The notes below the pieces were generated by a model. It ran no database searches, was not told where the DNA came from, and saw only the letters and a list, made by a program, of their open reading frames with translations. Of a stretch of 53,132 nucleotides of DNA, positions 13,246-13,986 are shown one piece after another. The DNA is taken from positions 62,001 to 115,132 of the forward strand of contig NW_026864444.1 of the NCBI RefSeq assembly GCF_026571515.1, written 5' to 3'. Made by a program: the position numbers and the translations under genes. The stretch's first letter is position 1. Every line of letters begins with the position of its first letter. This DNA comes from Ruditapes philippinarum (lineage: Eukaryota).

Positions 13246-13986
13246 ATGGTAAGTCTAAAATGTAAAATTCAGATAACATTGTAGAGGATTTGACATTTGT
13301 CTTGACATTCATGATAAGATATGGAGAAAATGTTGAAATCGCTTATGACGTCATTAACGTTTGATTCATATGAACGGATTTATCAACAATATACGGTTCT
13401 ATTTATGAAACAATTGAAAATTATTGCAACGGTTACGTTTGTTGTGCGGAAACATGTATGTATCATTTTAAGTTTTCTTTCGCAAAAATGGTATTTCATA
13501 CTAATTTATACCCACGATTTTCTTTTTCTATTGTGAAACAACAGATGTTCTTTCATTATTATTCAATTTAGTGTTAACAACTTTACACTTTTTTTTATCT
13601 TTTTTGATTTTAAGCAAGTTTAAACAACATAGTGACAGCAAATTTATTATTTCCAGACTGGTAAGAACAGGAGCATGATTTGCTACCCACTTCACAGAAA
13701 TAAAAGTTTCACTCTAATACTTCTTGTTGTCGTCAGTATTGCTTGTAGTGTTAATGGACAGCTTTGCCAGAAAGCCGTCGTTGCCGGGAGAGCAATCTGC
13801 AAGGACACAGCACCGTTCATTGACGGATTAGGACGATGTGCAAGGAGTGCTCCTTTAGAGTATGGAAAAAAAGGGTGTGGCTTTATTGGATCTGGTTGTC
13901 GATGTCAATCTAATCATGTTCTAAACATGGTAGCAACAAATTCAACTGCGATCTCCCAGTTGTCAGGTCTAATTGGACGGAAGTGA
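13246..13986 (+). CDS. Secreted six-cysteine peptide precursor with C-terminal GRK (putative amidated defence peptide/toxin), copy A
   Basis: ATG|GTAAGT at 13246-13254 splices in frame to TTCCAG|ACT at 13657 (alternative start ATG 13675). Hydrophobic signal FTLILLVVVSIACSVNG, then Q; Cys spacing C-X10-C-X12-C-X12-C-X6-C-X-C; ends LIGRK*. A conserved inverted paralog lies at 43532-44247. Confidence 0.75.

Follow-up and report, generated by a model that had tools for sequence, protein, structure and literature searches.

A Previously Unnamed Family of Six-Cysteine Peptides in the Manila Clam, Possibly Antimicrobial and Possibly Built on a Growth-Factor-Type Knot

Introduction

Among the defensins of bivalves, MCdef and VpDef are described as carrying the CxxxC motif (PMC5484132). 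For the Manila clam, Ruditapes philippinarum, the accounts consulted describe defensins, big defensin, macins, and mytilin/myticin-like peptides as its cysteine-rich defence peptides. Macins contain eight or more cysteines with a CS-alpha-beta core. The species is among the major ones in aquaculture, and a family of some 30 genes, most of them without annotation, would widen its defence repertoire.

The growth-factor cystine knot is a further small disulfide framework. To our knowledge, knots of this type are known as receptor ligands and not as antimicrobials, and we found no precedent in the searched literature for an antimicrobial with such a knot. It is described as having the disulfides I-IV, II-V, and III-VI, with I-IV passing the ring (PMC3328748), and as bearing the signature CXGXC plus CXC (PMC12203953). 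According to the latter source, the 41-residue mollusc peptide sigmaS-GVIIIA (PDB 9EBE) has a growth-factor knot with two facing hairpins, as seen by NMR.

In this report, we describe a gene in a stretch of 53,132 nucleotides of the R. philippinarum genome (NCBI RefSeq assembly GCF_026571515.1, contig NW_026864444.1, positions 62,001 to 115,132 of the forward strand), hereafter the window. An initial annotation had proposed here a new family of amidated six-cysteine secreted peptides with an antimicrobial, toxin, or signalling role. Judged by its sequence, the window gene is a member of a previously unnamed clam peptide family, and among the three proposed roles the evidence leans towards the antimicrobial one. 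The balance tips slightly towards the view that this member of a multigene family encodes a likely secreted, antimicrobial host-defence peptide in the form of a two-hairpin mini growth-factor knot.

Gene Structure and Transcripts

The open reading frame at 13657-13986 (+) holds the whole six-cysteine precursor in one exon (Table 1), and its translation bears out the cysteine gaps of 10, 12, 12, 6, and 1 residues that the initial annotation had read. Most of the other features proposed for the peptide were found as well: a signal-like hydrophobic run ending in Val-Asn-Gly directly before the Gln at 13759 (the cleavage site was placed by eye), a basic core with a net charge of +5 in copy 1, a cysteine-free tail of 25-26 residues, and a precursor C-terminus of Gly-Arg-Lys-stop. 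The CxxxC motif, said to be absent, was found neither in the copy 1 core nor in any family core (0/26). The second copy is also present; it lies inverted at 43858-43532, shares 85% identity with copy 1 over 107 amino acids, and has a precursor of 99 residues that again ends in Gly-Arg-Lys. Because a loose family pattern matched twice in the window and not once in 30 shuffled windows, the motif is not a product of chance. The window encodes the RefSeq protein XP_060566696.1, named "uncharacterized protein LOC132725577" of R. philippinarum.

Table 1. Positions of the features of the six-cysteine gene in the window.
Feature	Position	Strand	Remarks
ATG and donor-like GTAAGT, unsupported start	13246..13254	+	TTG in the third copy; no spliced joint
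TGACGTCA palindrome	13346..13353	.	35-45 nt upstream of the spliced-contig ends; copy 2 has it intact at 44140 and copy 3 with a single change; presumably CRE-like
Upstream exon, most likely non-coding, approximate 5' end	13390..13455	+	Contig joints from 13455 (X2, X7, X15); the X7 contig extends to 13392
Intron, 201 nt, GT..AG	13456..13656	+	Joint in X2; all three close copies retain both splice sites
Predicted 28-residue signal peptide with likely start ATG	13675..13758	+	ATG conserved; judged by eye, a hydrophobic core and a small residue ahead of Gln
Six-cysteine cationic core, Gln1 to Cys49	13759..13905	+	Two beta-hairpins predicted, with a one-turn helix in the joining loop
Cysteine-free tail, one N-glycosylation sequon	13906..13974	+	Most variable part in the family
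Gly-Arg-Lys-stop, amidation-type end	13975..13986	+	In 3/3 close copies; limited to the subfamily
Copy 2	43532..44120	-	Upstream exon 44120-44055, intron to 43859, ATG 43831

The start of the gene differs from the one first proposed, an ATG standing alone at the end of exon 1. The sequence ATG|GTAAGT at 13246-13254 does occur in both window copies; its role as the start is unsupported, for the third close copy (G000:C8038) has TTG, and no joint from 13248 was found in any of the eight runs checked, one of which (X21) had zero reads on the stretch. Spliced contigs were present in three of the eight runs, from two studies, always with the donor at 13455. The X2 contig joins 13455 to 13657 across a GT..AG intron and differs from copy 1 at 4 of 254 bases, and the X7 and X15 contigs join 13455 to the exon-2 start of sister copies. 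By these intron-free contigs the gene is transcribed and spliced; X2, X7, and X15 are not on record as RNA, so the evidence of splicing is the intron-free joint itself. X1 contains intron sequence, and no joint was seen in the raw RNA runs, where reads were sparse (119 reads in X19, mostly partial, 65 in X24, and 0 in X21).

The ATG at 13405, in the upstream exon, has a weak context and is in frame in copy 1 only; its frame closes after two codons in copies 2 and 3. The ATG at 13675 is conserved in all three close copies and in the outside relative P0005, and a Met stands in the same open frame as the core, 18-40 residues before the first cysteine, in 25/26 family proteins. For these reasons, translation most likely starts at 13675, which would give a precursor of 103 residues. 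The RefSeq model, of 154 residues, does use the supported intron between 13455 and 13657. Its extra 51-residue N-terminus is broken in the sister copies; the upstream start was rejected, and the model is corrected here as having an unsupported N-terminus.

Both copies belong to a duplication of about 5.6 kb in inverted orientation (12793-18416 versus 44755-40745). A Mariner/Tc1-type transposon with terminal inverted repeats (about 14649-16506, -), its transposase split over two frames (16130-15552 and 15293-14913), is inserted 3' of copy 1 and absent at copy 2. A second large inverted duplication (30421-40736 versus 53122-47817) bears minus-strand exons for immunoglobulin domains (37959-37672, 30994-30578, 32859-32530, and 36091-35834). 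The window also carries paralogous multi-exon genes at about 6005-12033 and 22280-27496 (+), with signal-like starts near 6970 and 23580; their 121-residue last exon (11355-11720 and 26831-27196) has no match in Pfam. A C2H2 zinc-finger ORF fragment lies at 39852-40220 (+), and degenerate tandem repeats of about 156-170 nt fill 8007-9353. A remnant with local inverted repeats at 336-931 is one that we take, by its translation, to be GIY-YIG/Penelope-like.

A Multigene Family in the Clam Genome

Five single-protein searches of the genome, to which a sixth added none, traced 30 related loci to 14 contigs; an open six-cysteine core is present in 27 of them (26 distinct proteins), and 3 are broken. 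These counts are lower bounds, and part of the loci may be alleles on separate contigs of this fragmented assembly of 1.41 Gb. Many of the loci stand in tandem; 11 of them, plus further fragments, share 42 kb of C5398, and another four share 15 kb of C3655. On the latter contig, L005 and L004 (G000:C3655:90444 and 98803) encode an identical protein 8 kb apart, either by a very recent duplication or by an assembly repeat.

The six cysteines, and likewise the Asp at the second position after C2, do not vary in 28/28 rows of alignment A5. The commonest spacing is C-6-C-12-C-8-C-6-C-1-C, and the gaps range over 6-10, 6-14, 6-12, 6-7, and 1 in the 26 proteins. The spacing 10-12-12-6-1 of the window gene is, within the family, a derived type of one subfamily. 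The shortest members, L041, L040, and L074 (G000:C7000 and C10323), have only six residues between C2 and C3. All 26 cores are positively charged, from +2 to +13 with a median of +8 and a pI of 8.3-11.2; the window copies (+5 and +6) are among the least cationic, and the lowest paralogue stands at +2. The N-terminal Gln proved to be a trait of the family: it lies two residues before C1 in 21/26 proteins, and in 23/26 if two extra-cysteine members are placed in register. Amidation is another matter. A Gly or Gly-Arg-Lys end is found in just 5/26 distinct proteins, so the word "amidated" in the original proposal does not define the family. The tails, of 1-59 residues, are the most variable part, and several are acidic (down to -6).

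Six independent close pairs give pN/pS values of 0.25 for the signal, 0.55 for the core, and 0.79 for the tail, a pattern of coding constraint. Positive selection in the core was not detected overall in these pairs; one pair has 11 replacement changes against 1 silent change. N-glycosylation sequons in the tails show no significant excess (11/26 against a shuffle mean of 8.3, p 0.15), nor does an amphipathic tail helix stand out (moment 0.54, p 0.17). Longer fused forms (253-2000 aa) numbered 0 among 3580 candidates, which is weak evidence.

Database searches gave ten outside relatives (P0002-P0009, P0011, and P0012). Identity to genome copies is 87-99% for two of them and 57-81% for the other eight, and P0005 ends in Gly-Arg. 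Several fall into existing subfamilies, in a poorly resolved tree of 39 columns with 8/31 branches well supported. This placement suggests that the outside relatives may come from related clams. A further candidate relative, P0010 (a 589 aa repeat), was rejected as a low-complexity match.

Predicted Fold and Proposed Disulfide Pairing

AlphaFold2 models were built with 29-30 aligned members. A canonical paralogue reached a pLDDT of 87 and the window copy one of 81, with the same topology: a hairpin with C1 and C2, a loop with a one-turn helix and C3, and a second hairpin with C4 and C5-x-C6. In the strand register of both models (DSSP lines), C4 faces C6 and C1 faces the invariant Asp. A homodimer prediction scored 0.00, with the fold uncertain.

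With either model, Foldseek returned nothing at E <= 0.001 (best E 2.9-3.8). In a wide structural search, all of the matches were weak, at Z 2.0-3.0, which lies below the frequent chance level for larger models. At Z >= 2, growth-factor cystine-knot proteins made up 3/3 matches of the first model (VEGF-A, VEGF-B, and the thyrotropin alpha chain) and 11/14 rows of the second (NBL1, glycoprotein hormone alpha chains, Norrin, Gremlin-1, PDGF, Spatzle, and artemin), the best being NBL1 (Z 3.0, rmsd 2.8, 44 aligned residues). The other rows of the second model were plectasin (Z 2.0, rmsd 3.0, 36 aligned) and two cytokine-receptor domains; the EGF-like protein Pfs25 (Z 2.1) appeared in 1/15 rows. 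In a second look, TGF-beta3 and Spatzle were the two passing among 65, and both are growth-factor cystine-knot proteins (2/2 at Z >= 2). By the ends of the aligned ranges, C1, C5, and C6 presumably correspond to cysteines I, V, and VI of the knot.

The two hairpins are pseudo-repeats of each other, C-x-R-x-G-R-x-C-x-Asp and C-x-R-I-G-R-x-C-R-Cys, and the invariant Asp occupies the position of C6 in the second repeat. Their similarity score is 7.35 against -3.5 when permuted, and 0.9% of 5040 column orders reach it (seven non-cysteine positions, 20 members). Hairpins repeated in this manner fit a cross-linking of equivalent cysteines. The disulfides would then be C1-C4, C2-C5, and C3-C6, the first of them running through a ring of 17 residues (11-19 residues across the family), and we hold a growth-factor-type cystine knot to be somewhat more likely than not. 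It should be mentioned that AlphaFold is described as capable of mis-pairing disulfides in rare frameworks (PMC12203953).

If the knot is true, this framework tolerates a ring of twice the textbook size in a peptide of 45-50 residues. It would also be a new small disulfide scaffold, with a use in defence for a knot known to date in growth factors, in hormones, and in a single group of conotoxins.

Such a fold also invites a hormonal reading. The peptides might be signalling ligands (cytokines, hormones, or pheromones), that is, mini growth-factor knots acting on clam receptors, with pyroglutamate and amide as hormone-style protection of the ends. The structural neighbours (VEGF, PDGF, TGF-beta3, glycoprotein hormone alpha, Norrin, Gremlin, NBL1, and Spatzle) suit this reading, as do the Gln start in 23/26 members, the Gly-Arg-Lys end in the window subfamily, and the very uneven presence of the gene across runs. 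We nevertheless regard it as unlikely, because about 30 diverging tandem copies, broken members, and a strong cationic charge suit effectors rather than conserved hormones. No named homologue was found outside R. philippinarum, the precursor is without an N-terminal pro-region or a dibasic release site, and the amidation-type end is restricted to the few proteins counted above.

Sequence Searches and Other Scaffolds

The claim that these secreted six-cysteine peptides form an undescribed family held up: Pfam, PDB, and Foldseek gave no significant match, and the sole named record is "uncharacterized". Pfam returned nothing at its cut-off for the ORF or for 16 and 28 aligned members, and the PDB contained no significant match by sequence. 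A designed PPR protein matched at E 0.0035 in the PDB search was judged spurious, as the match consists of three stretches of 5-6 bits. A search of the ESM Atlas with residues 80-140 of P0001 gave no usable feature match and, for a poor model, structure rows with TM of about 0.4. The literature searched, including by accession, contained no description of the family, with thin coverage of subscription journals, in which a good part of clam immunology is published.

Two non-significant matches raise another possibility for the scaffold. Profile A5 had a single PDB match, omega-agatoxin IVB at E 4.4, which covers C-6-C-1-C at the C-terminal end, and one member matched Pfam Toxin_30 at E 0.11-0.22. 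The peptides could serve in defence as an agatoxin/CCWamide-like knottin minus two cysteines, perhaps with parasite or predator ion channels as their targets, and with the pairing C1-C2, C3-C6, and C4-C5 that is derived from the agatoxin alignment. CCWamide/ALP peptides are described in molluscs and are amidated (PMC8557429). We consider this quite improbable. Both matches are far from significance, an adjacent CC is seen in 1/26 members only, the model register sets C4 opposite C6 and not C5, and CCWamide/ALP precursors have eight cysteines, a pro-region, and three exons against six cysteines, no pro-region, and one coding exon here. Clams are, moreover, filter feeders without a venom apparatus. 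The Ms11a peptides of Metridium were also tried as a match and rejected, being described with an adjacent CC and an ICK (PMC9866706).

The long, variable, and exposed C2-C3 loop, with its conserved Asp-Thr-x-Pro-Phe stretch, would likewise suit secreted binding modules of another kind, be it as inhibitors of proteases or as cationic constituents of mucus, periostracum, or gamete surfaces. Such roles are common for variable small disulfide-rich families in bivalves, and a novel inhibitor family is described in oyster (PMC3334963). We find this very unlikely, given that the models for Kazal, Kunitz, TIL, and further inhibitors all stayed below significance (the best match was Kazal_C6, at E 0.15 in 1/28 members) and that inhibition would not need a uniformly high positive charge.

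Proposed Function

The points that speak for an antimicrobial role in host defence are a tandem expansion with decay, invariant cysteines, cores that are all cationic, and variable loops and tails. Moreover, the signal is more conserved than the core and the core more than the tail, which is the pattern reported for mussel CRP-I (PMC10138031). Against this role stand the modest charge of the window copies, the lack of overall positive selection, and the one paralogue at +2.

We propose the following course. The signal peptide is predicted to be cut before Gln and the peptide exported, and from established peptide processing the N-terminal Gln would cyclise to pyroglutamate. In this subfamily, the terminal Arg-Lys would be trimmed and the Gly converted to an amide, to give a product of 72 residues and about 7.43 kDa. 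In paralogues with acidic tails, the tail may mask the core until it is cleaved; a masking pro-tail occurs in mussel mytilins and myticins. The Arg/Lys-rich tips of the hairpins would finally bind anionic microbial surfaces and disturb the envelope, and we judge such binding to be a little better than an even prospect.

In its most specific form, the proposal reads that about 30 clam antimicrobial peptides are built on a minimal growth-factor-type knot, in which an enlarged and variable ring (11-19) replaces CXGXC and the two hairpins resemble an internal duplication. We put this forward only tentatively, as a possibility rather than an expectation. If true, the growth-factor knot is usable as an effector scaffold, and this bears on the relation between the defensin-like and growth-factor knots.

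Comparison with Known Systems

The clam peptides resemble growth-factor knot proteins in having six knot-type cysteines that end in C-X-C and two facing hairpins, the latter only predicted in the clam. They differ in being without CXGXC, with 6-14 residues between cysteines II and III in 26/26 proteins, and in a ring that would hold 11-19 residues against eight in the growth-factor knot; in the NGF group, the knot rings are larger. The clam fingers are very short, the peptides are strongly cationic, and there is no sequence similarity to the growth-factor knot proteins. sigmaS-GVIIIA has ten cysteines against six in the clam, and 9EBE was absent from the structural matches.

With the bivalve CS-alpha-beta defensins (MCdef, VpDef, and MGD), mytilins, myticins, and macins, the family shares a probable secretion, a cationic character, a richness in cysteine, and a multigene nature, together with a final C-X(6)-C-X-C hairpin and a variable C-terminal extension. 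The terminal CxC is present in 26/26 cores, as part of the search pattern, and forms an antiparallel hairpin in both models. Of the solved CS-alpha-beta structures, plectasin gave the weak match mentioned above (Z 2.0). Unlike CS-alpha-beta defensins, the clam cores have no CxxxC (0/26), a helix of one turn only, and an extra N-terminal hairpin; unlike macins, they have six cysteines and no CxxxC, and the Pfam defensin and macin models matched none of the clam members. They differ from big defensins and beta-defensins in that the array ends in C-X-C and not CC, no domain lies between signal and core, and Pfam gives no match.

CRP-I of Mytilus (PMC10138031) is described as a comparable lineage-restricted tandem family of short, secreted, cationic six-cysteine peptides with a conserved signal and a variable mature part. 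As described there, it differs in its C-C-CC-C-C array, knottin-like fold, pro-region with a dibasic site, and several exons; the one clam core with an adjacent CC has it through a seventh cysteine, and the C-C-CC-C-C array itself is not found. The CCWamide/agatoxin-like peptides (PMC8557429) are alike in the C-X6-C start, the C-X6-C-X-C end, and the possibility of amidation. They are described with eight cysteines including CC, a pro-region, three exons, and an amidated aromatic end, whereas the clam peptides have six cysteines, are mostly non-amidated, and keep signal, core, and tail in one open frame in 25/26 proteins. As far as sequences tell, the family is kin in kind to the known secreted, cationic, cysteine-braced multigene peptides, while departing from the arrays that define each of them.
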